64,000 bases of DNA from Coriobacteriia bacterium (GTDB taxonomy: Bacteria > Actinomycetota > Coriobacteriia > Anaerosomatales > JAAXUF01). The notes under the pieces were generated by a model. The model saw only the letters and a list, made by a program, of their open reading frames with translations, was not told where the DNA came from and did not search any database. The translations under genes were made by a program, and so were the position numbers. Location of the stretch: NCBI GenBank assembly GCA_038249135.1, contig JBBRWO010000003.1, positions 1,860 to 65,859 of the forward strand, given 5' to 3'. Positions 1,260-14,356 of this stretch are shown here, piece by piece; within the stretch, counting starts at the first letter, position 1, and every line of letters starts with the position of its first letter.

Positions 1260-2378
1260 TCATCGTGCGAAAACGAGCACTCGCTCGCACACCGTCTGCA
1301 CGGCATCCCGCTTACCTAGCGTACCAGCATTGGCAACCATCTGGGTCAGTCGCTCGGGATGCGTGGACAAGAACTTCACCTTCTCCACCGCATCTGATTC
1401 GTCCCGAGAAAGCAGCGCCACTCCGTTGTTGACGAGCGCATCAACGGTACGGGTCTCATGTCCGGGCACCGGACCGAGGATGACGAGCGGCAGACCGACC
1501 GCGAGAGCCTCTGCGAGAGCGATCCCGCCGGCATGCGCGACAAGCACGTCGGATCCGCGCATGAGCGCAGGCATCTCCTCGGTGAACCCGAACACTCGCA
1601 CCAGCCCGGTCTTCTCGGAAACCGCCATGAGGCGTCTCTGAACGCGAGCATTGGCGCCTGCAGCCGCCATCACCTGGATTCCTGCCGAGGCGAGCTCTGC
1701 GGCAATGTGGTCGGAGTCGACCTGAGGAGATGCGGTCGCGAGCAAGAGCGCCGTGAACCTGTCGGCGATGCCGAGATATTTGCGCAGCCCCGGCCCCGTC
1801 GCGCCTGCCGAGAACTTGTCGGCCACCGGCACGCCCGAGACGATGATGCGATCCCACGGAGTGCCTCCAACCGCGAGTTCGTCACGCACATCACGGCTCG
1901 GCACGAAGAACAGGGCCGTGGTCGGATGAATCCAACTGTCGCGTGCGTCGAAGTCGGTCACTACGCTCACTGCGGAGAATGACCTGTCCGCGCTGAGTTC
2001 TGCCGCCACACCAGCCGCGATCGGCGAGGTCGAGATGACGACATGAGGGTCGTGTGCGGAAAGATATTCGGCTATACGATCGAGGCCTCCCGCGGCCAGA
2101 CCCGACATCACTTGGTTCTGTGGTCCCAGCCGAGTCATCCGAGCGAGATCCCCGCGGCCAGTCGGGAAGAACTCCGAGCCTTGTTGATAGGCGAACTTGG
2201 CGAGCACGTTCACGTTAGGCATGAACTGCGCGAGCGGATCGACGACGGTCAGCTCGACTGTGTCGGAGCCTCGCGTCTGGTAGTACGCAGCGATTGATTC
2301 CGCCACACCATGCGCTGCCCCACCGTATGACGCCGAAAAGACCACGACACGCGTGGCACCGGATGCACGTTGCGCCAT
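1260..2378 (-). CDS. GT28/MGDG-synthase-like glycosyltransferase (diacylglycerol glycosyltransferase-like)
   Basis: 372 aa. The N-terminal VVVFSASYGGAAHGVAESI and the C-terminal AHAGGIALAEALAVGLPLVILGPVPGHE resemble MurG/UgtP-type GT-B enzymes. ATG 2378 shares one base with the TGA of the upstream gene. Confidence 0.75.
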   Translation of the reverse strand: MAQRASGATRVVVFSASYGGAAHGVAESIAAYYQTRGSDTVELTVVDPLAQFMPNVNVLAKFAYQQGSEFFPTGRGDLARMTRLGPQNQVMSGLAAGGLDRIAEYLSAHDPHVVISTSPIAAGVAAELSADRSFSAVSVVTDFDARDSWIHPTTALFFVPSRDVRDELAVGGTPWDRIIVSGVPVADKFSAGATGPGLRKYLGIADRFTALLLATASPQVDSDHIAAELASAGIQVMAAAGANARVQRRLMAVSEKTGLVRVFGFTEEMPALMRGSDVLVAHAGGIALAEALAVGLPLVILGPVPGHETRTVDALVNNGVALLSRDESDAVEKVKFLSTHPERLTQMVANAGTLGKRDAVQTVCERVLVFAR

Positions 2379-3163
2379 CAGCCTTTTCCGCCGCCGCGAT
2401 GTTTGACAAGTCGCACGAGCGTGCCTCCGCCAACGGGCTTCTCGAACTCGACGCGGTCTGTGAGGGCGCGCATGAACGCGACTCCTCGCCCGCTTGGCGC
2501 GTACACATCGCTTGACCGTGACGGCGTGCCATCGAACCCGGTACCGAAGTCGATGATCTCGAGAACGACACGATCGGCGTACGCGATAACCCGCACGTCC
2601 ACGTTCGCCTCACCATCGGCTGGCGATCCGTGACGAACAGCGTTGGCCAAAGCCTCGCCGAGCGCCACCCTCATGTCGAAGACCGCAGATTCCGCGAAGC
2701 CTAATGGCTGAATCAACTGGCAGACCTCTTCGCGCATTGTCCCGAGCCGGTCCACGCTCGCATTCATCTCAAGCTCGCGGCGCCAAAGCTCCTGTGCCGG
2801 CTCACTTGAAAGTCCAAGTCCCTCGAGCGCTCCCTCAACGTTAGGACTCATCGCCAGAGTCGAGGCGACGGTGATAAGGCCGGACAGCTCAAGAATCCGC
2901 GTGATGTCCCGATTCGCGCTCGCAAGTACCATGCGTCCGCCACTGGGGCGCAGTTGATGGTCGAGCCATACCAGAAGCCCGAGCGCCGAACTGTCCGCAT
3001 AGACGACGTCGCTCAGATCGAGAACGAGGTGAGCGCAGCCGCCGTCAATAGCGTTGCCTAGATCCCGGCGCAGTTCCGGAACCATCGCTATGTCGATATC
3101 GCCAGACAGGCGCACCACGCACGACCGAGGGCTGTCATGCTTCTCCAGTTCGAAACTAGACAT
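2378..3163 (-). CDS. fused anti-sigma-factor antagonist (STAS) and RsbW/SpoIIAB-like serine kinase (HATPase_c)
   Basis: From ATG 3163: MSSFELEKH...VRLSGDIDIAMVPELRRDL...DLSDVVYADSSALGLLVWL is a STAS domain with the DSS phospho-serine motif. It is followed by GEALANAVRHG (N-box) and IIDFGTGFD (G1 box). ATG 3163 overlaps the stop of the upstream phosphatase gene (ATGTCTAG). Confidence 0.8.
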   Translation of the reverse strand: MSSFELEKHDSPRSCVVRLSGDIDIAMVPELRRDLGNAIDGGCAHLVLDLSDVVYADSSALGLLVWLDHQLRPSGGRMVLASANRDITRILELSGLITVASTLAMSPNVEGALEGLGLSSEPAQELWRRELEMNASVDRLGTMREEVCQLIQPLGFAESAVFDMRVALGEALANAVRHGSPADGEANVDVRVIAYADRVVLEIIDFGTGFDGTPSRSSDVYAPSGRGVAFMRALTDRVEFEKPVGGGTLVRLVKHRGGGKG

Positions 3164-6100
3164 CCTTGGGGCTACCCACTTCCATCTGGGGCTGCGTAAT
3201 CTCACCGACGCCTTCGCGCACTCGAAGAACCAACACCGCCACATCGTCACGCAGTTCCGAGCGAACGAACCGTCGGACTGACACCAAAAGACGCTGCGCG
3301 ACCTCATCGGCAGTCCCGCCGACCTGTAAGGCAGCATGTACCCGCTTCTCGCCGAAGAACTCGGCTCCACTTCTCGCTTCCGTGACACCGTCGGTATAGA
3401 GCAGCACCATGTCGCCTGGTTTCATCGGTACCACCTGCTCCCCATAGACCACTTCACTCAGCGCGCCGAGAAGCGGACCTGTGGCAGCGAGCGATATGCA
3501 CTCACCGTCGTTGGCCTCCTGGAGAAGGCCCGCCGGATGCCCGCCGCTCGCCCACTTCAGCACGCCACGTCGCGGATCGTAACGGCCGACCCAGAGCGTC
3601 ACGATGTCGCTCGGGTCGCCCGTCTCGGTGACCATGCGGTTGATCTCGCCGAGAATGCGAGCTGGAGAGAACCCGGCCGCCGCAAGCGAGCGAACAGAGT
3701 ACTTGATCATCGACGTCTTGGTCGCAGCAACCACGCCCTTGCCGCACACGTCGGCGATGGCGAACAGTATGCCGCCGTCCGCGCTGCGGAAGAGATCGTA
3801 ATAGTCGCCACCGATCTCAGCGTCACCGCCCGCGGGCGCGTACACGCTTCCCGCTTCAACCTCGTCGAACTCCGGCAGAGCACCGGGAAGAATCGACCGC
3901 TGCAGGATGCTCGCCACCTCGTGCTCGCGGCTGTACAACCGCGCGGTGTCGATTGCGAGCGCGGCCTGCGACGCGAACGTCTGCAACGTGGCCTGATCCT
4001 CTTCGGAGAACGCGCCGACCTCCGCAGAGAAGACCGTCAGTACGCCGATCGACCGTCCACGGGCCAACAGAGGCACAGCGAGGAGCGAGCGCAGGCCATG
4101 AGCGGCCGCGTCTCCGGCGATGCCGCCCATCCCCGCGTGCAGGTCCTTGTACGTCGCAGGAACTCCGGTGGTGAACACGTAACCAGGGATATCATCGGAG
4201 GGCGTGAACACTCGGTCCACCAGGTCGGGCGACACCGCTCCACGAGCCATCGCCGTGGTGATGGTCCGCCGCCGCTGATCATAGGTCATCAACGCCAGTG
4301 CATCCGCCGAGAGAATCTTCTGCACCACATCGAGCACGCGATTGAGAACCACGTTCACCTGGAGAGAAGATCCGACCGCCTGGCTGATTCTGAAGATGGT
4401 CTCCAGGTTGTTAGCGCGTACGACCGCCTGCTCGTACAGGTAAGCATTCTCGAGCGCGAGCGCGAGCTCATTTGCAACTGAAGTAGCAAGTTCCGCATCC
4501 CGACGAGACCCCAGCAACTGCGGCAAAGCAAGACCAAGCACGGCACCATGCAGCTTGTCGAGGGCAACCGGAACGAGCATGAGTCGCTCTGCCCCGGTCT
4601 TGTCGATGAACGCATCGGCAGATGGGTCCTCCCCCCGCTTCACGACCAACGGCCGCACGCTTTCACCTGGTGCAAACCGGCGCAGTGCAAGGTCGAGGAG
4701 GTTTGCATCAAACGAGTGGTCAGCCGCGGGCGGCAGGCCAAGCGCGGAACGGGATGCAAATGCGAAGGTCGCCTCTTTCGCCCCAAACAGATCGGCAACG
4801 ATGAGTTCGATTTCGTGGAGCGTGTCGCTCAGCCCATCAGGACGCGCCAGACGCTCAGCGATTTCACGCAGCCCGTCAGACACCCGACGCGACTCCGTCT
4901 CGATAGCAAACAGCCGCGAATTCTGTACAGCGACGGCCGCCTGCGCCGAGAAGGTCCTGACCATCTCGCGCTCCGCCTGCGAGGTGTCTTGCTCGGATTC
5001 CAGCAGCACAACAACCGCGCCCAGGGTCTCGCGACCCGCGATGAGCGGGGCGACCAACGCGCAGCGACCAGCCTCGCCCAGACCGGGCAGCTCAGAGGCG
5101 ATGCTCTCGGGCCTCGCGGCATACACCACCGGCTCAGAGTCGGTGAGCGCCGTGGCGAGCCATCCATCGGAGTAGGCATCAATCGCCGACACGTAGCCCA
5201 GTTCCACCCCACGCACCCGCACCGGGACAAGCCAGCGGCCGTCACGATCAAGCAGATAGACCGCCGCAGTACCCGGTCCCACGATGTGCCCCATCGCCGA
5301 CAGAATGCCGTCAAGCACCTGGTCCAGTTGCGATGCACTGGCAAGCAGTTGCGAAAGATCGTGCAGGGCGTTGAGTCGAAGCGCTACCGCATTGAACGCC
5401 TTGGCAACCTGCCCGATCTCGTCATCGCGGTCCTCAGAAATCGGCTTGACGTATGAGCCCTTCGCCGCACGATACGCTGCATCTTCCAGATCGCGGAGTG
5501 GTGCCACGAGTCTGCTCGAGATGAGCCATGCTGCAAGCAGTGCAGTGATGCCGCCGACAATCAGGACCAGCAGAGACGGGGCGACCGCGCCAGCGGTTTC
5601 AACCACGCCGACATACCGCGGCTCGAGAATCACGAGCCTCAGATCGACCCCTTCTACACCCCGGATGTCCTTGTAGTGGCCGGCGAGAGGCATGCCTTGC
5701 GCGACGGGAACGGTCACATCTCCAGCGCCCGGCACCTGCGACACCCAAACGGCCCCTCGCATGCGAAGCCCCTTTGTTGCGCCAACGCTGAACAGGGACG
5801 CGCCGTTTTGAAGCACCACGACCACGCGGCCATCCCCAACCCGGGCATTGGCGATGGTCGCCCTGAGGAACGAGGTGTTCACCTTCTCAAGAATCACGAC
5901 CGGTTCACTGCCGCCGAGGAATACAGTTCGAGTCAGCCAGAGTGATCGTGTGCCCGAGGTGTCCACACTCGAGACGAAGCCCGTGGCACCTCGGAGCGCA
6001 GCGCCGTAGGCAGACCGTGCCGCTCGCGGCACCACAGTACGAGTGCCGGGCGCACTTGCGACAACGCGTCCGCGCGTATCCACCACATCAATCTCGGAGA

Positions 6101-6413
6101 TCAGACCGTCAGATGAGTCTCGAAGTATCGAGATTCGCTCAGCTATCACGGCCGCCTCGGTCTGACCCGCAACCGCGTTCGCGACTCGTGATGCGTTGGC
6201 ATCAACAGACTGCAACCGAGACAAGATGGCGTCCTCAGTGGCCTGAAGATATGCCTCATCTCTGGCGGCGATCTGCCGCTGAGCAAGATTCGAGACCCCA
6301 ACGACCGCCACCGTGCCGGAGACGACTACAGTCGCAACTCCGATCAACAGCGTCAGGCTCATGATGCGGCCAGCGAGCCGCCCCGGTCTGCGAGCGATCC
6401 TCGTCATCCGCAC
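3156..6413 (-). CDS. membrane sensor PP2C (SpoIIE/RsbU-type) serine phosphatase with extracytoplasmic domain, HAMP and multiple GAF domains
   Basis: 1085 aa. It has an N-terminal TM helix, a periplasmic-type region of about 240 aa and a second TM helix. Then come HAMP (APLRDLEDAAYRAAKGSY...IGQVAKAFNAV), about three GAF-like blocks and a C-terminal PP2C signature (IGGDYYDLF...FAIADVCGKGVVAA...LLYTDGVTEA). Confidence 0.85.
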   Translation of the reverse strand: MRMTRIARRPGRLAGRIMSLTLLIGVATVVVSGTVAVVGVSNLAQRQIAARDEAYLQATEDAILSRLQSVDANASRVANAVAGQTEAAVIAERISILRDSSDGLISEIDVVDTRGRVVASAPGTRTVVPRAARSAYGAALRGATGFVSSVDTSGTRSLWLTRTVFLGGSEPVVILEKVNTSFLRATIANARVGDGRVVVVLQNGASLFSVGATKGLRMRGAVWVSQVPGAGDVTVPVAQGMPLAGHYKDIRGVEGVDLRLVILEPRYVGVVETAGAVAPSLLVLIVGGITALLAAWLISSRLVAPLRDLEDAAYRAAKGSYVKPISEDRDDEIGQVAKAFNAVALRLNALHDLSQLLASASQLDQVLDGILSAMGHIVGPGTAAVYLLDRDGRWLVPVRVRGVELGYVSAIDAYSDGWLATALTDSEPVVYAARPESIASELPGLGEAGRCALVAPLIAGRETLGAVVVLLESEQDTSQAEREMVRTFSAQAAVAVQNSRLFAIETESRRVSDGLREIAERLARPDGLSDTLHEIELIVADLFGAKEATFAFASRSALGLPPAADHSFDANLLDLALRRFAPGESVRPLVVKRGEDPSADAFIDKTGAERLMLVPVALDKLHGAVLGLALPQLLGSRRDAELATSVANELALALENAYLYEQAVVRANNLETIFRISQAVGSSLQVNVVLNRVLDVVQKILSADALALMTYDQRRRTITTAMARGAVSPDLVDRVFTPSDDIPGYVFTTGVPATYKDLHAGMGGIAGDAAAHGLRSLLAVPLLARGRSIGVLTVFSAEVGAFSEEDQATLQTFASQAALAIDTARLYSREHEVASILQRSILPGALPEFDEVEAGSVYAPAGGDAEIGGDYYDLFRSADGGILFAIADVCGKGVVAATKTSMIKYSVRSLAAAGFSPARILGEINRMVTETGDPSDIVTLWVGRYDPRRGVLKWASGGHPAGLLQEANDGECISLAATGPLLGALSEVVYGEQVVPMKPGDMVLLYTDGVTEARSGAEFFGEKRVHAALQVGGTADEVAQRLLVSVRRFVRSELRDDVAVLVLRVREGVGEITQPQMEVGSPKDV

Positions 6414-6450
6414 CCCCGCCCCTGGTCATCGGTCACCACGTCAATCAAGC

Positions 6451-6479
6451 AGTGCCATCGTACTGCATCGTACGGCACT
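6451..6479 (-). promoter_or_regulatory. hairpin / 8-nt direct repeat between ccdA and the phosphatase gene
   Basis: AGTGCC (6451-6456) and GGCACT (6474-6479) are reverse complements. They flank the direct repeat CATCGTAC-TG-CATCGTAC (6456-6473). The element could be a terminator after ccdA or a regulator site for the next gene. Confidence 0.3.
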
Positions 6480-6495
6480 AGGGCGTGAGCGCGGG

Positions 6496-7215
6496 CTAGA
6501 ACGAGGGCACAGCCGAAGTAAGCCAGTTGGCCAGCACTCCCAGCTGCCCGGTGAAGATAAGTAGTCCGATCGCAACGAGCATCGCGCCGGCGACGCGGTT
6601 CACGATGAGCGAGTGACGGTTGAGCCACGCGAGCAGAGGCTTCACGCGACCGAACAGCAGGGCAACGAGCAGAAACGGTATCCCGAGACCGAGTGAATAC
6701 ACAAGCAGCAGGAGCGCACCATTGGAAACGCTCCCCGTGGCTGCGGCCAACGCGAGAATGGTCCCTAGGATCGGCCCGACACACGGCGTCCAGCCGGCGG
6801 CGAACGCCATCCCCATGACGAGCGATGCGCCCCGCCCGAAGGATCGAGCGCGACCCATGTCGGCACGAGCCTCACCGTACAGGCCGGGAATCTTGATGAA
6901 GCCGAGCATGAAGATGCCAAAGAGCACGACGGCGACTCCGGCAATGCGCTCGACAACCTGTCGATACTCGACAAGGAGCTGTCCAACGACTGAAGCGGAC
7001 GCACCGAGGGCGACGAATACCAGTGAGAACCCGACAACGAAAAGAGCTGCGGGAACGAGGACCTTTGAAGATGACCGCTCAGAGTCCGCGAGCTGTGTCG
7101 TAGTCATCCCTGTCATGAACGACAGATATCCGGGAATCAACGGGAGGACGCACGGAGAGAGAAATGACAACAGCCCTGCGGTGAACGCAGCGACATAGCT
7201 CACGGAACCACTCAC
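6496..7215 (-). CDS. ccdA: cytochrome c biogenesis thiol-disulfide transporter CcdA (DsbD-like membrane core)
   Basis: 239 aa polytopic protein. FLSPCVLPLIPGYLSF and GWTPCVGPILG are the two conserved CcdA/DsbD Cys-Pro motifs. GTG start at 7215 with an AAGGGTGG RBS. Confidence 0.85.
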   Translation of the reverse strand: MSGSVSYVAAFTAGLLSFLSPCVLPLIPGYLSFMTGMTTTQLADSERSSSKVLVPAALFVVGFSLVFVALGASASVVGQLLVEYRQVVERIAGVAVVLFGIFMLGFIKIPGLYGEARADMGRARSFGRGASLVMGMAFAAGWTPCVGPILGTILALAAATGSVSNGALLLLVYSLGLGIPFLLVALLFGRVKPLLAWLNRHSLIVNRVAGAMLVAIGLLIFTGQLGVLANWLTSAVPSF

Positions 7216-7258
7216 GAACTACCACCCTTCAGCAACCAGTACGAACATGGCACTCAAC

Positions 7259-7276
7259 TATACCCCACTGGGTATA
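7259..7276. promoter_or_regulatory. CsoR-type operator-like palindrome upstream of ccdA
   Basis: TATACCCCACTGGGTATA has arms ATACCC/GGGTAT. It closely matches the palindrome in the csoR-CDF intergenic region (14290-14306) and lies 44-61 nt upstream of the ccdA start. Confidence 0.4.
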
Positions 7277-7301: not shown

Positions 7302-7523
7302 TCAGGCGAGCTGCTCGGCGTCGTACCCTACGCTTCGAATGGCATCTATGATCTGCTCGACAGTGATGACGTCGTCGTCAAAGCGCACAACGGTGTCGCC
7401 GGTCGCGTGATCGGTTCGAACGTCGGCCACTCCTTCGAGCTCGCCAACCGTAAGGTCCACCAGCATCGAGCACGAAGTGCAGTGCAGCCCTGAGGTCACG
7501 AGATTCGCGGTCACTTCACTCAT
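7302..7523 (-). CDS. heavy-metal-associated (HMA) domain metallochaperone-like protein
   Basis: MSEVTANLVTSGLHCTSCSMLVDLTVGELEGVADV... shows the ferredoxin-like HMA pattern with a CxxC (CTSC). ATG 7523 is preferred over 7532 because the GAGGGAG RBS is 9 nt upstream. Confidence 0.8.
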   Translation of the reverse strand: MSEVTANLVTSGLHCTSCSMLVDLTVGELEGVADVRTDHATGDTVVRFDDDVITVEQIIDAIRSVGYDAEQLA

Positions 7524-7851
7524 CAGGTGCATCTCCCTCGGATTTGATGTTCCCGCAGTACGGGCACATGCGCCAATCCTGCATCATCGCGGCGTCGCAG
7601 GAACCACACCGTACCATCACGGGCGCCGAGCGGTCTTCATGATTACGGTGAGATGACAACAGCGCCCAGCTCAACAGCACTACCAGGCCGGTCGCGATGG
7701 CGGGTATAACCCAGCCCAGACCAGCGCCTTGTGGGAGTGCGTAACGGTCAGCGTCGGCGAAAAGGGTAAGCCCCAAGGCCAGCAAGACACCCGTCACAAC
7801 GAGACCCGAGAGAAGGCCTGCTAGTGCGCGTGTCGCCGGACGAGATGTCAC
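7516..7851 (-). CDS. small membrane protein with C-terminal zinc-ribbon (CxxC...CxxC)
   Basis: Two hydrophobic helices are followed by VRCGSCDAAMMQDWRMCPYCG. Start moved to GTG 7851 (AGGGAG RBS 7 nt upstream). The 28 codons upstream in the track ORF are Arg/Pro-rich and contain a sigma-54 promoter match. Confidence 0.6.
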   Translation of the reverse strand: MTSRPATRALAGLLSGLVVTGVLLALGLTLFADADRYALPQGAGLGWVIPAIATGLVVLLSWALLSSHRNHEDRSAPVMVRCGSCDAAMMQDWRMCPYCGNIKSEGDAPDE

Positions 7852-7893
7852 TCGGAAGCTCCCTGGCAGAGGGCATGGACGTAACCGCCGAGG

Positions 7894-7909
7894 TGCAATC
7901 GGTGTGCCA
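7894..7909 (-). promoter_or_regulatory. sigma-54 (-24/-12) promoter
   Basis: The minus strand reads TGGCACACCGATTGCA, an exact match to TGGCAC-N5-TTGCA. It sits in the 94-nt gap between the EBP gene stop (7946) and GTG 7851, in the correct orientation. Confidence 0.65.
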
Positions 7910-7945
7910 ACATCCGCAGAGCGCGCCAGACGCATCTCCGAGAGG

Positions 7946-9295
7946 TCAGAGTCCTAGCCGCTGCATGCGCGCTTCAAGCGTCTTGGCGGTGAGCCCCAGA
8001 AGCTTCGCTGCCTTGGGAACAACGCTCCCCGCGCGGTCAAGCGCCTGCCTCACCAAGTCAAGCTCGACCTCCTCGAGGTCGACCCCGTCTTCCGGTAGCG
8101 TGAATCCGCTGGTCGCACGGTCGAACCCACCCAGTCCGGCACGCACCTCGCCCGGAAGATCGGAAAGCTCTATCTCATCGCCGTGCGACAGAATGATGAT
8201 GCGCTCGATGGTGTTCTCAAGCTCTCGAATGTTCCCTGGCCACTGATAGCGAGCAAGCGCCTCCATGGCCGCGGGCGAAATCCGCTTGGCGCCTGCCTTG
8301 AACTTCTCGAGGAAGTGGGCGACGAGAAGCGGAATGTCCCCGCTGCGGTGACGCAACGGCGGCAGCGTCACCGGAACCACGTTGAGGCGATAGAAGAGAT
8401 CCTCTCGGAAGGCTCCGTCAGCGATCAGTTGCTGGAGGTCCTGGTTCGTGGCGGCGACCACCCGAACGTCGACATCGATACTGCGGGTTCCGCCGAGACG
8501 CTCGAAACTGCGCTCCTGCAAGACTCGAAGCAGCTTGACCTGCGTCGCCGACGAGATGTCGCCGATCTCATCGAGGAACAACGTGCCCCCGTTCGCGAGT
8601 TCGAACCGCCCGGGCTTCGCTGTGACCGCTCCGGTGAACGCGCCCTTCTCGAACCCGAAGAGCTCGCTCTCCAGCAGAGTCTCAGGCAGCGCACCCGCGC
8701 TCACGGACACAAACGGCTTGTTGGCCCGATCAGAAAGGTTGTGGAGAGCGCGCGCGATGAGCTCCTTGCCCGTACCTGACTCGCCGTAGATCATGACCGT
8801 GGCCAGCGTCGGTGCCACCTTCTGCACCGTCTCGAGCACCGCCATCATGCCGGCGTCTGATGCCACGATTCCTTCGACGTCGTACTCACGGTCCAACTCG
8901 CTTCTCAGGCGAACCACCTCAGCGGCGAGTCCCGAGTACGTGAGCGCCTTATCGATGGCGAGCTTGAGCTCTTCGAGGTCGAATGGCTTGGTCAGGTACT
9001 CGCTCGCGCCGGCCTTCATCGCCTCGACGGCCGTCGCCACATTGCCGTGCGCAGTCAGCATGATGATCGGGAACTGAAGGCCTTTACTCCGAACGGTACG
9101 AAGCACCTCCATGCCGTCTTTGCCCGGCATCCGGTGGTCGAGCACCATGACATCGGGCTCCTGGTCCGAGATGATCGAGAGCGCCTCAACGCCGTCGGAC
9201 GCCTCGAGGACCTCGTAGCCATCGCCCGAGAGCGCCTGGCCGAGAACCCATCTCATGTTCTTCTCGTCATCAACAATGAGCACGCGCTTGCCCAT
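7946..9295 (-). CDS. sigma-54-dependent response regulator (NtrC/AtoC family: REC + AAA+ + Fis-type HTH)
   Basis: The receiver domain is VLIVDDE...[13 protein letters not shown]. Walker A is GESGTGKE, the sigma-54 contact loop is [15 protein letters not shown], and the C-terminal HTH is [16 protein letters not shown]. Confidence 0.92.
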
Positions 9296-9306: not shown

Positions 9307-10842
9307 TTACTCGTCCAGTGCCGCCGGCAAGGTCACGTTGAATACCGTGCCATCCGGAGAACTCTCTACTTCGATTCTACCTTCGTGCTCGTCAATGATC
9401 CTGTGAACTATCGTCAGGCCAAGTCCGGTGCCTTCGGCCCGCTTGGTGGAGAACGGGTCGAACACCTTAGGTAGATCCTCCGGCGCGATTCCCGGGCCAC
9501 TGTCGGCTACCGACACTTGTACGTACTCACCGCTCGCGCGAGTGGCGATGATAATGGTTCCGCCGTCGTCACCCATCGCTTGCACGGCGTTGGTGACCAG
9601 ATTCAGAAACACTTGCTTGAGCTGATCGGGGTCGCCATCAACGAGCGGGAGGTCGTCGGCGAGCCGTTGCTCGATTCGGACGTCGGACTGACGCGCGAAC
9701 CGAGTAGTGAAGAGTACTACGTCCTGCAAAAGCTCGTTGAGGTCAGCACGGACCAGCGTGGGTTTGCTGGGTCGGCCGAAGTCCAACAACGCCTTGATGA
9801 CCTTGTCCAGTCGATCGATCTCTTGCTTGATGACCTCTGCCGCGTCGTGAATGCGCGCCGCGTCGCATTGCGCATCCTCGAGCAGTTGTACGCTGGCTCT
9901 GATGACCCCAAGCGGGTTGCGGACCTCGTGCGCAACGCCGGCGGTCAACTCGCCCATGGCAGCAAGACGGTCCGCCCGAATGAGCTGATCGGTCAACGCC
10001 TTTATGTCTGAGACGTCTTCGAGTGTCACGACAGCCCCAAGCACTGTGCCACCGACGGCACGCATCCGCGACGTCGAAGATTGCACGTGAACCTCACGTC
10101 CTGAAGACGTGGTCAGCGTTCCCTCGCGTAGCGCCAGAGGTAGCCGACCCGCCAAGACCTTGTCGACATCGCCGGAAATTCCACCGTCTTCGCGAAACAG
10201 GAGCGAGATCGGCCGAGGGACCATCTCGAACTCGGACATGCCGAGCATCCGCTCCGCAGCAGGGTTGGCCGTGGTCACAGAACCATCCGGGCCCACCGTA
10301 AGCACCCCCGAGGTAATCGATCTGAGAATCGACTGGGTGTAATCCTGGATGTTGATGAGCTGGATCGCCCGCTCTTCGAGCTTCTTGTACGCCTCCTCGA
10401 GCTGCAAAGAGAGCTGACGCAAGTCGCGCGTCTTGTTCTCCTCTGTGTCGCGAAGCGCACCGAACAGCACGCCCACCGCGATAAACGATGCAACCTCCAG
10501 GACGCTGGCAAAGCCGGTGCTCATCGGAAGACCCAGGGTGGTTCGAGAATGGATCGCAAACGGCAGCGAGGCGGCAAGCGCGACGGCGAAGCCACCCCGA
10601 CGACCGAAAACGTACGCCGCGTAGATGATAGGAACGTAGTAGAGCCGCTGGTACAGGAGGTGCATCTGCGCACTTCCAACCCCTGACCCGGCCAGAAGGT
10701 GCAGTGCCGAGACTCCGATCAGCATCACGACGATGATCAGCGTCGCACGAACCTCGCGCGCCCTCTGCGCGTCGGCCATGGCGGGTGCGCCTTCGGTCGC
10801 GAGCTGCGGTCGCTTCGGCAGCCCGGCGCGCTCCCCTGTCAT
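9307..10842 (-). CDS. membrane sensor histidine kinase (multi-TM N-terminus, PAS, HisKA, HATPase_c)
   Basis: H-box [17 protein letters not shown]-box [12 protein letters not shown]-box DSGPGI...GTGLGL. ATG 10842 overlaps the rpoN stop as ATGA. Confidence 0.88.
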
Positions 10843-12239
10843 CTGCGGCGCCTCGCCCAAGACGGCTCGATGTGCAGTTCCTCGCGATACTTCGCTACCG
10901 TACGCCGCGCCACGGTAACGCCCTCGTCGGACAGCATCTCAGCGAGTCGCTGATCCGAGAGCGGCTTGGCGACATCTTCCGCCAGCACGAGTTCGCGCAA
11001 CCGCTGCTTGATACTGGTGGCGGCCACGTCCATGCCACTCGTCGTCCGGTATCCGCCGCTGAAGAAGTGCTTGAGCTCGAAGAGGCCATAGGGCGTGGCC
11101 ATGTATTTGCCGGTTACCCCGCGGGAGACGGTCGACAGGTGTACGCCGATCTCCACGGCGACGTCCTCGAGTCGCAGCGGACGCAACAGCCCGTGCCCGT
11201 CCTCGAAGAACTCGAACTGCACCTCGAGGATGATCTGCGTGATCCGCGTGACCGTGTCCTTGCGCCGATCGACGTTCTTGATGAAACTCTCCGCCGAGCG
11301 GATCTTGTCCTTCAGGTACTTGCGTGTCTCGTCATCTGCCGAGGAACCGCTGCGCAGCATCGACCGATACCGCGGGGACACGCGCAACGTGGGAATCGCT
11401 TCGTTGTTCGAGGTGATGACCCACTCATCGTCGAAGCGACGAATCGTCACGTCCGGCACGATGTAGCCCGGCGAAGGTCCGGGAGAAAACGCTCCGGCCG
11501 GTCTGGGGTTGAGGACTTTGAGAATCTCAACCAGTCGCCGGACCTCGGCCTCATCGACCTTCAGCGCTCGCGCGACCTTGCGATAGTGGTTGGCGGCAAC
11601 ATCATCGAGATGCTCGCGCACGATGACGAGCAGCAACGGCTCCTCGATGTCGAGTGACTCGAGCTGAAGACGCAACGCTTCTGCGAGGTCGCGCGCGCCA
11701 ACCCCCGGCGGATCGAGTTGCTGAACCGCGCGAAGTCCCTCCTCGGCCTCGGCGAGGGTAACGTCAACGAGTTTCGCGACTTCCTCGAGCGAGCCGACAA
11801 AAAATCCGTCCTTGTCGAGCGACCCGACCACGGCCTTCGCCGCATTCTCGACATCCTCGGTGACGTCAAGCAAGGAAAGCTGCTCGAGCAGATAGTCGTC
11901 GAACGACTGAACGCCGCCGACAAAGTCCTCAGTGTTGGTCTGCTCGGCGTTAGGGTCGCGGGGCGCACTCTGGTCGGTGGTGTCGAGATCCTCATACATC
12001 TCGAGCCACTCGTCCCACGAACGCTCGTCGACCGGCTCCTCAGGAGCCTCTTCACCCTCAGCGGGCTCACTGTCGGTCTCGTCAACCTCGAGGACCGGGT
12101 TCTCGAGCATCTCGACTTCGATCATCTGCTGAAGCTCTGTAACGGGCATGGCGAGTATGGCCAGTCCCTGATACACCTGCGGGGACAGCGTCACTTTCTG
12201 GCGAAGGTCTGATCGCTGCGAGAGTTCCAAAGTACTCAC
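10839..12239 (-). CDS. rpoN: RNA polymerase sigma-54 factor
   Basis: 466 aa with a Gln/Leu-rich region I, an acidic region II and the C-terminal RpoN box ARRTVAKYREEL. Confidence 0.93.
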   Translation of the reverse strand: MSTLELSQRSDLRQKVTLSPQVYQGLAILAMPVTELQQMIEVEMLENPVLEVDETDSEPAEGEEAPEEPVDERSWDEWLEMYEDLDTTDQSAPRDPNAEQTNTEDFVGGVQSFDDYLLEQLSLLDVTEDVENAAKAVVGSLDKDGFFVGSLEEVAKLVDVTLAEAEEGLRAVQQLDPPGVGARDLAEALRLQLESLDIEEPLLLVIVREHLDDVAANHYRKVARALKVDEAEVRRLVEILKVLNPRPAGAFSPGPSPGYIVPDVTIRRFDDEWVITSNNEAIPTLRVSPRYRSMLRSGSSADDETRKYLKDKIRSAESFIKNVDRRKDTVTRITQIILEVQFEFFEDGHGLLRPLRLEDVAVEIGVHLSTVSRGVTGKYMATPYGLFELKHFFSGGYRTTSGMDVAATSIKQRLRELVLAEDVAKPLSDQRLAEMLSDEGVTVARRTVAKYREELHIEPSWARRRR

Positions 12240-12277: not shown

Positions 12278-12293
12278 TGCAAAAAGTATACCA
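12278..12293 (-). promoter_or_regulatory. sigma-54 (-24/-12) promoter upstream of rpoN
   Basis: The minus strand reads TGGTATACTTTTTGCA, with GG-N10-GC spacing and a full TTGCA -12 box. It lies about 40 nt upstream of the rpoN start, just downstream of the hairpin that follows the EamA gene. Confidence 0.55.
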
Positions 12294-12342: not shown

Positions 12343-13365
12343 TCACTCCTGTGGCGGCAGGATGGGCACCGGCTGCCGCTCGGGCAGCTGGACCACCGCG
12401 ATCGCTGCGATGACGAGTGCTCCGCCCAGGATCTGTACCGGGCTCAGCGCCGTGCCGAACAGGAAGTACGCGCCGATAGCCGCCAGCACCGGCTCAACGG
12501 TCGACGTCACCGTCGCGTTGGTGGGCGCGATGTGGCGCAACGCGGTCAGGAAGGCCGCGAAGGGAACAATCGTGCTCACCACGGCGATGAACAGAACAGC
12601 AACGGCCGTCTTCACATCCAGAAGGAGCGAGAGAACCGGCTTCACACCAAGCACCGCGAACCAGAACACACTCGCGAACGCGAGCCCCCAGACCAGTGTC
12701 GTATACGGCGGATAACGGCGAGCCGCGACCGAACCCATCAGGGAGTATGCCGCGAAGAACACCGCCGAAAGCAGTCCCCAGAGCACTCCCGTGGGCGGGA
12801 TGGAGAGACCGTCGCCGCCTATGGCGCCGACCACCAACGCACACCCGAGAACCGACAGCGCGACGCCGACAGGTAGTGCCCATGTCAGCTTGTGTCGCAG
12901 GAAGAGCACACTGAACGCGAGCACCAGTACCGGGGCGAGATATTCAAGCAGAATCGCGGTCGCGGGATCGTGTGTGATCGAGATGGTCTTGAAGTACGTG
13001 TAGTGGACCATGGCCAATCCGGCAACTCCGAACACCGCGAAGAACGGCACTTCGCGCAGTTCTATTCGCAAGTCGCGACGGCGAAAGACAGCCAAGTACG
13101 CCGCCAGCAGTACAAACGCGCTGAATGCGCGGGCGCCGGACAGCACGGTCGGCTCGACCACCATGCCGAGCGGGGCGACCAGCCACGCATTCGTGGCAAG
13201 CGACGGCGTAGTGAACAGCCAATCAGCTGTCAAACCTCCGGTCGCCCAGCAGGCAGCCGCCAGCAAAGCCAACAGATACCCCCGGAGCGCCGACTGTTTG
13301 AGAGGGCCCGCCTTACGCGCCTGAGCCACGGGACTCCTCGGCGGTCTTGGCCTTCTGATAGTCAT
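12343..13365 (-). CDS. EamA/DMT-family transporter
   Basis: About 10 hydrophobic helices in two repeated halves, typical of EamA. The start is uncertain because the longest ORF overlaps the 3' end of the CDF gene. Confidence 0.8.
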   Translation of the reverse strand: MTIRRPRPPRSPVAQARKAGPLKQSALRGYLLALLAAACWATGGLTADWLFTTPSLATNAWLVAPLGMVVEPTVLSGARAFSAFVLLAAYLAVFRRRDLRIELREVPFFAVFGVAGLAMVHYTYFKTISITHDPATAILLEYLAPVLVLAFSVLFLRHKLTWALPVGVALSVLGCALVVGAIGGDGLSIPPTGVLWGLLSAVFFAAYSLMGSVAARRYPPYTTLVWGLAFASVFWFAVLGVKPVLSLLLDVKTAVAVLFIAVVSTIVPFAAFLTALRHIAPTNATVTSTVEPVLAAIGAYFLFGTALSPVQILGGALVIAAIAVVQLPERQPVPILPPQE

Positions 13366-14257
13366 CGTAAGGCTCGAGGTGGGCGATCACGTCGACGATC
13401 TGCTGATACTGCTCGGCAAGGGTGAGCTCCACCTCTTCTGCGATGTCGTGCCCCTCCGCGACGGTGGCCTCGGGGTCGACCTGCACGTGTAGATCCACAT
13501 ACACCTCGGCCTCAGAACCACGCGTTCGGATGTGATGGCAGCCCAAGACACCGGGAACCGAGATCGCGACCGCGCAGATATCGTCGGCTGGTATGCGCAT
13601 GGAGTCCGAGAGGGTCGCACTGGCATGACGGAACACTCCCCATGCGGTGTACACGATCGCGCACGTCACCAGCAAAGCGACAATCGGGTCGGCCAGGGGG
13701 AAGCCAAGCTTCACCAACACGAGGCTGACGATGACTCCGATGCTGACGAGTGCGTCAGATCCGGTGTGGCTTGCGTCGGCGACCAGGATCGAACTGCCCA
13801 GTCTGTGACCGACCCGGCGTTCCCAGAACGTGACGCCTAGATTGACAGCAAGCGTGCCGAGCATGACCACAAAGGACATGGCGGTGACCGTCGGGGGCTC
13901 ACCGCCACTCCTGAGTCCGGCAATGGCCTCGCTGCCGATTCGATACGCAGCAAACAGGAGCATCGCACCGATGACCGCGGATGCGTAGGTCTCGTACTTG
14001 CCATGCCCGTACGGGTGGTCCTCGTCGGCAGGACGACCGGCAAAGCCCATACCGACGAGGCCAACGACATTGCTCGCTCCGTCGAACAGGGAGTGAAAAC
14101 CGTCAGCCTGCATTGCGGTAGAGCCGCTGATCGTTCCCCACACGAGCTTAGCCAATGCGACAGCGACGTTCAGGAACAGAATTATCCAGAGAATCCGCTT
14201 GATCTCGCGGATTCTGCCCTCACCAGCCGCTGCGTTTGCTGGTCGTGTGTAGCCCAC
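13313..14257 (-). CDS. cation diffusion facilitator (CDF) divalent-metal efflux transporter
   Basis: HxxxD motifs are present in TM2 (FHSLFD) and TM5 (SHTGSD), with a C-terminal cytoplasmic domain. Start moved to GTG 14257 (GGAGGGGGA RBS) because the longer ORF would read through the operator palindrome. Confidence 0.85.
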   Translation of the reverse strand: MGYTRPANAAAGEGRIREIKRILWIILFLNVAVALAKLVWGTISGSTAMQADGFHSLFDGASNVVGLVGMGFAGRPADEDHPYGHGKYETYASAVIGAMLLFAAYRIGSEAIAGLRSGGEPPTVTAMSFVVMLGTLAVNLGVTFWERRVGHRLGSSILVADASHTGSDALVSIGVIVSLVLVKLGFPLADPIVALLVTCAIVYTAWGVFRHASATLSDSMRIPADDICAVAISVPGVLGCHHIRTRGSEAEVYVDLHVQVDPEATVAEGHDIAEEVELTLAEQYQQIVDVIAHLEPYDDYQKAKTAEESRGSGA

Positions 14258-14289
14258 GCTTCCCCCTCCGTGATACTGGCTTGCTGTGA

Positions 14290-14306
14290 ATACCCCTAGG
14301 GGGTAT
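14290..14306. promoter_or_regulatory. CsoR-family operator palindrome in the divergent CDF/csoR intergenic region
   Basis: ATACCCCTAGGGGGTAT has 7-bp arms ATACCCC/GGGGTAT. It lies 33 nt from the CDF start and 51 nt from the csoR-like start. A weaker second site, GTACCCGAGGGGAC, is at 14333-14346. Confidence 0.55.
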
Positions 14307-14356
14307 AGTGTCTGCGTAAGAGAGAGCATACCGTACCCGAGGGGACTGGGCTAACC

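Follow-up and report, generated by a model that had tools for sequence, protein, structure and literature searches.

The DNA analysed here is a 64,000-nucleotide stretch (the window) of contig JBBRWO010000003.1 from a Coriobacteriia bacterium. Its minus strand carries a compact run of genes for an EamA permease, sigma-54 (rpoN), a membrane histidine kinase, an NtrC-type response regulator of the enhancer-binding class (the activator), a small Zn-ribbon membrane protein, a CopZ-like HMA protein, a CcdA-type transporter and a PP2C phosphatase (Table 1). A predicted sigma-54 promoter, the subject of this study, lies in the gap that separates the activator and Zn-ribbon genes. The site itself had been noticed in a sequence-only reading of the stretch. 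We describe below its conservation, the genes around it and the transcripts of a relative, which together lead us to propose that it serves the Zn-ribbon and HMA genes of a conserved stress module.

Table 1. Genes and predicted elements around the promoter (window coordinates; nt, nucleotides; aa, amino acids).
Feature	Coordinates	Strand	Description
STAS/HATPase_c_2 fusion	2378..3388	-	ORF (open reading frame) of 336 aa, downstream of the phosphatase gene
HAMP-GAF-GAF-PP2C phosphatase	3156-6413	-	downstream of ccdA
ccdA, CcdA/DsbD-type thiol-disulfide membrane transporter	6496..7215	-	Pfam DsbD_TM and DsbD_2
CsoR-type palindrome ATACCCAGTGGGGTAT	7257..7276	-	approximately 40 nt upstream of ccdA; right arm runs into -10-like TATAGT (7262-7257)
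CopZ-like HMA protein, 73 aa	7302..7523	-	ATG 7523; motif GLHCTSC
Zn-ribbon membrane protein, 111 aa	7516..7851	-	first gene past the promoter; two predicted helices, then C-terminal CxxC-N10-CPYC
Non-coding gap, 94 nt	7852..7945	-	from activator stop to Zn-ribbon start; holds the promoter
Shine-Dalgarno sequence AGGGAG	7859..7864	-	7 nt before GTG 7851-7849; GGGGAG in relatives
Extended conserved promoter block GGATGTTGGCACACCGATTGCACCTCGGCG	7886..7915	-	from the alignment of 8 close relatives; variable flanks on both sides
Predicted sigma-54 promoter core	7894..7909	-	TGGCAC 7909-7904, 5-nt spacer, TTGCA 7898-7894
NtrC-type response regulator (activator)	7946..9295	-	receiver, AAA+, Fis-type helix-turn-helix (HTH_8)
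Membrane PAS histidine kinase	9307..10860	-	Pfam PAS, HisKA, HATPase_c; overlaps rpoN end; presumed partner of the activator
rpoN (sigma-54)	10839..12239	-	AID PF00309, CBD PF04963, DBD PF04552; RpoN box ARRTVAKYR
Second sigma-54-like element TGGTATACTTTTTGCA	12278..12293	-	38 nt before the GTG start codon of rpoN
EamA permease	12343-13365	-	immediately precedes rpoN; Pfam match, synteny conserved
CDF metal exporter	13313-14257	-	likely start GTG 14257; Pfam match
Second CsoR-type palindrome ATACCCCTAGGGGGTATAGT	14290..14310		in the interval separating the CDF gene from the divergent csoR-family gene
CsoR/RcnR-family repressor, 98 aa	14357..14653	+	Pfam PF02583, E 1.7e-24, 86.5 bits

Read on the minus strand from 7909 to 7894, TGGCACACCGATTGCA matches TGGCAC-N5-TTGCA at all 11 specified positions, with the GG of the -24 element at 7908-7907 and the GC of the -12 element at 7896-7895, exactly 10 bp apart. 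The strand reads GGATGT-TGGCAC-ACCGA-TTGCA-CCTCGGCG across the site, and the core predicts a transcription start at approximately 7883. The exact consensus occurs once in the window, compared with 0.04 occurrences expected from 100 dinucleotide-preserving shuffles, and no further match with one mismatch was found in the 64 kb. Two-mismatch matches number 17 versus 15.3 expected, and we rejected them as other sigma-54 sites in the window, given this chance-level count and their inconsistent gene context. The stop codon of the activator gene is TGA 7948-7946, and the proposed arrangement of activator gene, 94-nt gap with promoter and GTG 7851 is correct in its coordinates. Folding of the leader (7885-7830) gave -12 kcal/mol (z = +0.9), no better than shuffled sequences.

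Related loci were gathered from contigs encoding homologues and from a scan of species-representative genomes, which gave 81 loci; removal of 6 redundant ones left 75 non-redundant loci comprising 780,137 bases, and both strands were scanned. The pattern TGGCAY-N5-TTGCW has 66 matches in these 75 loci, compared with a mean of 1.2 and a maximum of 4 in block shuffles. All 66 lie between the activator stop and the Zn-ribbon gene, with none elsewhere in the 780 kb; the sole cluster-bearing locus without a match (L024) is on a contig starting only at the ribosome-binding site. The best consensus match is located 8-95 nt past the activator stop, and among 71 loci scored, 54 have no mismatch and 15 have one, the one-mismatch promoters always reading TGGCAT. 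In the close relatives, 12/12 contigs have the motif in the same place, with the spacers ACCGA, AACGA, AGCGA, ACTGA and ACCTA. Across the 66 loci, the spacer letters vary whereas the -24/-12 blocks and the spacer length are invariant, and an alignment of 8 close relatives confines conservation inside the gap to the promoter block and the Shine-Dalgarno/start region. Invariant blocks at a fixed spacing with free spacer letters argue for a protein-DNA site, since neither coding sequence nor RNA structure would produce such a pattern. Judged by its conservation, the element at 7909-7894 is a sigma-54-type promoter and more than a chance match, and the consensus-perfect site originally singled out proves to be unique in the window and retained in 66 loci.

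The surroundings are conserved as well. Approximately 60 loci from species-level genomes keep the gene order EamA-rpoN-kinase-activator-Zn-ribbon-HMA-CcdA-SpoIIE, with 72-98% identity across loci for the activator but only 27-90% for the Zn-ribbon protein. The loci are labelled Coriobacteriia, Actinomycetota, Anaerosomatales or Coriobacteriaceae bacterium EMTCatB1; several are on contigs of 0.6-1.8 Mb and one is on a complete chromosome. As far as synteny can tell, the block of rpoN, kinase, activator, promoter, Zn-ribbon and HMA genes forms a module that an order-level clade of uncultured Coriobacteriia (Anaerosomatales-like Actinomycetota) has conserved. One close relative (L007:4500-5848) has its activator gene split into two called genes (303 + 144 aa), perhaps through a frameshift or an error of assembly; its promoter and downstream genes are intact.

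A mechanical list of ORFs gives ORF 7516..7935 (139 codons, ATG 7935), which treats part of the gap as codons 1-28, and on that basis the motif could be no more than a match by chance within a genuine gene of 139 aa. Used as a query, the long ORF returned 11 homologues, which span only approximately 80% of its length and are mostly called at 109-111 aa. In the alignment of the 8 close relatives, ATG 7935 is absent, +1/-1 indels follow the activator stop within the supposed first 28 codons, and GGGGAG and GTGACATCTCG are conserved alongside the promoter block. Most of 61 loci place the start of the first ORF that has a Shine-Dalgarno sequence 36-45 nt past TTGCA, and this ORF encodes approximately 110-120 aa with two hydrophobic segments and the pattern C-x-x-C ... 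W-R-M/L-C-P-Y-C-G. Homologue sizes, the missing ATG, the indels and the conserved GGGGAG/GTG all indicate that GTG 7851 is the right start, as the sequence-only reading had argued, and that the 139-codon ORF is, by comparison with relatives, an over-call. With the motif also kept in 66 loci amid varying surroundings, we regard a chance match inside coding sequence as having a negligible probability. The start assignment gives the corrected gene model for a small membrane protein that is often truncated, over-extended or missed in gene calling. In the EMTCatB1 annotation, no gene is called between the activator and HMA genes.

The CxxC...CxxC pattern is kept in 60/61 orthologues of the Zn-ribbon protein, and 33 carry an extra cysteine upstream of the ribbon. 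Pfam matches are to Zn_ribbon_3, DZR and Zn_ribbon_15, those to Zn_ribbon_3 and DZR being below their cut-offs. An AlphaFold model has helices at 5-35 and 48-74 and a small ribbon, with a mean predicted local distance difference test score of 66, and comparison with solved structures found only weak matches to L32-type ribbons (E > 0.05). A role in stabilising RpoN was considered by likeness to FlgZ (HP0958; PMC3372290), a Zn-ribbon protein with that function which is soluble and consists of a DUF164 coiled-coil and a C4 ribbon. This was rejected, as the protein encoded here has no supporting Pfam match and two long predicted helices.

The machinery that such a promoter would require is encoded next to it. 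The rpoN product scores 410.7 bits with TIGR02395 (cut-off 277), and the activator matches Sigma54_activat (PF00158, E 3.1e-70), Response_reg and HTH_8, with the GAFTGA loop and the Walker A motif GESGTGKE present in its translation. Pfam, NCBIfam and motifs thus agree with the earlier claim that the promoter lies beside an intact rpoN and an NtrC-type activator; each of the two genes occurs once in the window. Only 11 nt separate the kinase and activator genes, whose synteny holds in approximately 60 loci, and a Receiver/AAA+/HTH_8 regulator beside a HisKA/HATPase_c kinase has the make-up of an NtrC-family two-component pair. The closest NCBIfam models of the kinase are AtoS (351 versus a cut-off of 646) and ZraS (218 versus 479), and the activator scores 490 with AtoC (cut-off 714) and 385 with ZraR (cut-off 760); an identity as AtoSC or ZraSR equivalogs was rejected, all four scores being below the NCBIfam cut-offs. 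For the sensor domain of the kinase, only a sub-threshold match to DUF4118 was found (E 0.83). Upstream of rpoN, the second sigma-54-like pattern NGGTAY-N5-TTGCW is present in 44 loci and elsewhere only 3 times (47 in total versus 3.2 in shuffles), and in many loci a CATAAT or AATATAC hexamer precedes it by 5-6 nt. This pattern suggests that rpoN may be autoregulated through TGGTATACTTTTTGCA, either positively or by occlusion.

The second gene of the proposed unit overlaps the first: the HMA start at ATG 7523 lies 8 nt inside the end of the Zn-ribbon gene, and the protein is called at 73 aa in relatives too. It matches Pfam HMA (PF00403, E 1.7e-12, 47.9 bits versus a cut-off of 24.8) and falls below the cut-off of the NCBIfam CopZ models (47.6 versus 91). 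Nevertheless, with a single HMA domain, approximately 70 aa and an N-terminal CxxC, it has the makings of a CopZ-type metallochaperone; G-M/L-H-C-x-S-C is invariant in 65/65 orthologues, and this is the one HMA gene in the window. The overlap agrees with the earlier view that the Zn-ribbon and HMA genes form the unit downstream of the promoter.

The locus of EMTCatB1 (L078) was found in biocathode metatranscriptomes as assembled contigs with flat depth and no strand. In run X7, depth is 6 over the activator gene, falling to 0 over its last 185 nt, then 414 at 5701-5832, 75 at 5803-6324 and 7 at 6311-6562 on the ccdA side, with 0-50 over the rest of the 12-kb locus. The HMA stop codon (6335-6337) is followed by a long hairpin containing the palindrome. 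RNA contigs in L078 also end at 6324-6330, just before that stop codon. In the expression table of PMC7943316 (supplement), mean transcripts per million (TPM) in closed circuit, open circuit and BrES are 99, 76 and 77 for rpoN, 72, 17 and 40 for the kinase, 99, 32 and 89 for the activator, 354, 326 and 230 for HMA, and 123, 26 and 54 for ccdA. The EMTCatB1 RNA data support a separate, strong Zn-ribbon/HMA unit, without confirming the start site itself.

The downstream limit of this unit is suggested by the HMA-ccdA gap, which holds ATATACCCAGTGGGGTATAGT, a TACCC-N-GGGTA palindrome joined to a -10-like hexamer. A CsoR-type palindrome is found upstream of ccdA in 37/64 loci, in 29 of them with a TATNNT-like hexamer. 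Since a predicted operator and a -10-like hexamer precede it, ccdA most likely has a separate promoter under CsoR-type control, and the sigma-54 promoter most likely drives a two-gene unit of Zn-ribbon and HMA. A single long operon that also takes in ccdA and the genes of the GAF-PP2C phosphatase and of the STAS/anti-sigma kinase fusion would suit the co-directional, syntenic genes and the fact that no intrinsic terminators were found within the cluster. This is hard to reconcile with the palindrome and hexamer before ccdA, with the drop in RNA depth from 75 to 7 at the HMA end and with the TPM values of 354 for HMA versus 123 for ccdA and 40 for the phosphatase in the same table, and we consider it improbable. 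The suggestion that the sigma-54 unit might extend to ccdA is therefore mostly unsupported, given the predicted operator and -10 element that ccdA has of its own and an RNA depth approximately 10-fold lower past HMA in the relative. The phosphatase and STAS/HATPase_c_2 genes (2378-6413, minus strand) follow ccdA in nearly all relatives and resemble a partner-switching module; the ORF at 2378..3388 is longer (336 aa) than the versions called in relatives (261-262 aa).

A second palindrome of the same type as that found before ccdA in 37/64 loci, ATACCCCTAGGGGGTAT, lies 50 nt before the csoR-family gene and is likewise a predicted operator. The csoR-family product has PDB matches to InrS and CsoR and, compared with the solved CsoR/InrS structures, keeps the ligand cysteines C41 and C70, with Ser66 at the position of the ligand His and His65 adjacent. 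By its position, the sigma-54 cassette is embedded between genes with predicted CsoR operators, CDF/csoR upstream and ccdA downstream. The mechanical 338-aa CDF ORF (13313-14329, minus strand) spans the palindrome and is called at 314 aa in relatives; GTG 14257 is preceded by the Shine-Dalgarno-like GGAGGGGGAA, which marks the 338-aa version as an over-call.

What the module responds to can be approached through its gene content. The HMA protein, CcdA, the CsoR-family repressor with its predicted operators, the CDF exporter and Cu-type ATPases in relatives fit the metal or thiol theme that had been proposed. In L032 and L036, the Zn-ribbon gene is followed by a P1B ATPase with CPC, YN and MxxSS, the Cu(I)/Ag(I) signature, and in L031 and L036 by a DsbD_2-cupredoxin fusion. 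The inserts between the Zn-ribbon gene and ccdA (L031:6260-7300, L032:6144-8768, L036:6255-11315) include an extra HMA and cupredoxin protein, and also P1B ATPases that carry between one and three HMA domains. The module is thus likely to act in soft-metal stress, most likely Cu(I), or in thiol/persulfide stress. A response to reactive sulfur or thiol stress and not to copper, in which the CsoR-family protein acts like the persulfide sensor CstR, would explain why C41 and C70 persist but Ser66 stands where the canonical Cu(I) ligand His would be. It would also suit CcdA as a thiol-disulfide carrier, the best NCBIfam match of CcdA (the TsoB rhodanese/DsbD model, far below its cut-off) and the anoxic, sulfidic settings that the host organisms inhabit. 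Set against this, relatives encode Cu(I)-type P1B-1 ATPases and cupredoxin domains where the sigma-54-driven genes lie, the CxxC of the HMA chaperone is invariant, and the adjacent His65 could still bind metal; on balance, we view a purely sulfur-directed role as possible, if somewhat unlikely.

Taken together, we put the probability at roughly 0.8 that 7909-7894 is a functional sigma-54 promoter serving the Zn-ribbon/HMA unit of a conserved soft-metal or thiol stress module. Several results weigh against this proposal. Copper is not established as the signal, because Ser replaces the ligand His in the CsoR-family protein. No RNA runs containing the window itself were found, only DNA metagenomes, and the runs found for a peat relative (L064) gave stray matches only. 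In EMTCatB1, HMA is high in all three conditions of the expression data cited and does not track activator mRNA. Moreover, RNA contigs from two independent studies (X7 and X8) end at 5701 and 5700, i.e., 24 nt upstream of the -24 element and approximately 49 nt upstream of the predicted start (approximately 5750), and both bear fold-back chimeras there that are typical of a real RNA end. No transcript 5' end was seen at the predicted start, although unstranded contigs of flat depth could hide one. The start that had been expected near 7883 was consequently not confirmed, the sole RNA evidence, contigs from a relative, placing an end approximately 49 nt further upstream.

Likewise, the upstream activating sites expected in 7910-8100 were not found by conservation or k-mer analysis. 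Neither third-codon-position information from 52 activator genes nor synonymous variation among the 8 close relatives revealed a conserved patch in the last 180 codons of the activator gene, and 7-mers shared by the regions upstream of the sigma-54 promoter and of rpoN were only GC-rich noise. The activator site may be degenerate or displaced. Two inverted repeats (8055-8091 and 7953-7986) were rejected as activator sites since they are inside the activator coding sequence, the former encoding a 13-residue stretch just before the helix-turn-helix.

The upstream RNA ends raise the question of whether the sigma-54 site, though genuine, is secondary as a source of Zn-ribbon/HMA mRNA, with most transcripts beginning approximately 24 nt upstream of the -24 element. 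Such mRNA could come from a second promoter or from processing of an rpoN-kinase-activator transcript, leaving the sigma-54 site to give a conditional burst or to hold a bound closed complex that modulates read-through. The coincidence of the 5700/5701 ends and their chimeras in two studies, the high HMA level in all three conditions and the lack of a terminator between the activator gene and the promoter would fit. Yet no TANNNT -10 element is found upstream of 5700 in L078, the stretch from the stop codon to the promoter block is unconserved in close relatives, and processing alone hardly explains a depth of 0 upstream of 5701 versus 414 downstream. Since the contigs are flat in depth and strandless, the end could mark a second promoter, a processing site or the 3' end of an antisense RNA. 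We consider a minor role for the sigma-54 site unlikely and retain it as the promoter of the unit.

On this interpretation, RNA polymerase with sigma-54, encoded three genes upstream, would form a closed complex at the site, the neighbouring PAS histidine kinase would phosphorylate the activator, and the AAA+ domain of the activator, through its GAFTGA loop, would open the complex. Transcription would start near 7883 and give a leader of approximately 30 nt with the Shine-Dalgarno site. Two proteins would result, a small membrane protein whose four-cysteine Zn-ribbon is cytoplasmic and the CopZ-like HMA metallochaperone.

The sequence-only reading had described such a regulon as not a classical sigma-54 role, which needs qualification, as precedents in metal and sulfur stress exist. 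ZraSR and FisR place metal or sulfur stress under sigma-54 control; in Escherichia coli, the sigma-54-dependent two-component system ZraS/ZraR responds to metal stress and activates the adjacent small envelope-stress gene zraP. The system described here differs from ZraSR in that the proteins are not equivalogs by NCBIfam score and there is no ZraP-like periplasmic target. By analogy, the closest functional precedent appears to be CorSR of Myxococcus xanthus, a sigma-54-dependent two-component system over a copper cluster with predicted sigma-54 promoters (PMC3707914). The likeness is one of domains and context: both consist of a kinase and a sigma-54-dependent regulator with the Pfam set PF00072, PF00158 and PF02954. 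CorSR adjoins copper genes (the curA operon) with predicted sigma-54 promoters, which encode a cupredoxin protein, a multicopper oxidase and a P-type ATPase, and part of the Myxococcus cluster is under a second, non-sigma-54 regulator (PMC3707914). By contrast, CorS has a predicted periplasmic sensor domain whereas the kinase here has only membrane helices and a cytoplasmic PAS domain, the targets here are a Zn-ribbon membrane protein and a CopZ-like protein, and in Myxococcus, a proteobacterium with many activators, rpoN lies outside the cluster.

Part of the arrangement also recalls the CsoR-copZA operons of Bacillus, Mycobacterium and Streptomyces (PDB 4m1p, 4adz, 2hh7), which share a CsoR-family repressor, a GC-rich TACCC-N-GGGTA-type palindrome overlapping the -10 element, and nearby genes for a CopZ-like chaperone and a Cu-ATPase. 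Here, however, the chaperone is behind a predicted sigma-54 promoter instead of the CsoR operator, the operator precedes ccdA and the CDF/csoR pair, and the ligand His is off its canonical position. In having very few activators, the system resembles the single-activator sigma-54 of Borrelia and Chlamydia (PMC3162934), which are host-associated, with reduced genomes and different targets. In the part of the EMTCatB1 gene table examined, there is only one annotation of an enhancer-binding type and one of sigma-54.

As an element the promoter is of an ordinary kind; what is unusual is the lineage that hosts it and its compact, self-contained layout. An earlier survey found Actinobacteria to be without a sigma-54 system (PMC3162934), and a 2025 survey described Actinomycetota as effectively without functional RpoN, proposing that high G+C makes sigma-54 promoters hard to discriminate from background (PMC12316311). 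Sigma factors go unmentioned in the description of Anaerosomatales, and no literature linking sigma-54 with Coriobacteriia or Anaerosomatales was found in the literature searched. The host genome, at 62% G+C, carries within the 64-kb window rpoN, one activator and one perfectly discriminated promoter, and the module recurs in approximately 60 species-level Coriobacteriia/Actinomycetota genomes within a phylum reported to be sigma-54-free. It is a compact, naturally occurring model for the study of sigma-54 in monoderms of high G+C, and links sigma-54 to a CsoR-type metal/thiol circuit. More tentatively, and with less than even odds, we suggest that sigma-54 is single-purpose here: a cassette, autoregulated through the second sigma-54-type site before rpoN, of rpoN, kinase, activator, one consensus promoter and a two-gene metal/thiol unit, nested in a CsoR-family regulon. 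If true, this would be among the smallest sigma-54 regulons in a free-living bacterium, and a clear exception both to an absence of functional RpoN in Actinomycetota and to the notion that high G+C prevents discrimination (PMC12316311).

Finally, in the EMTCatB1 expression table (PMC7943316), the hypothetical gene 1d0285, three positions before rpoN, has TPM values of 1128 in closed circuit, 110 in open circuit and 244 in BrES.

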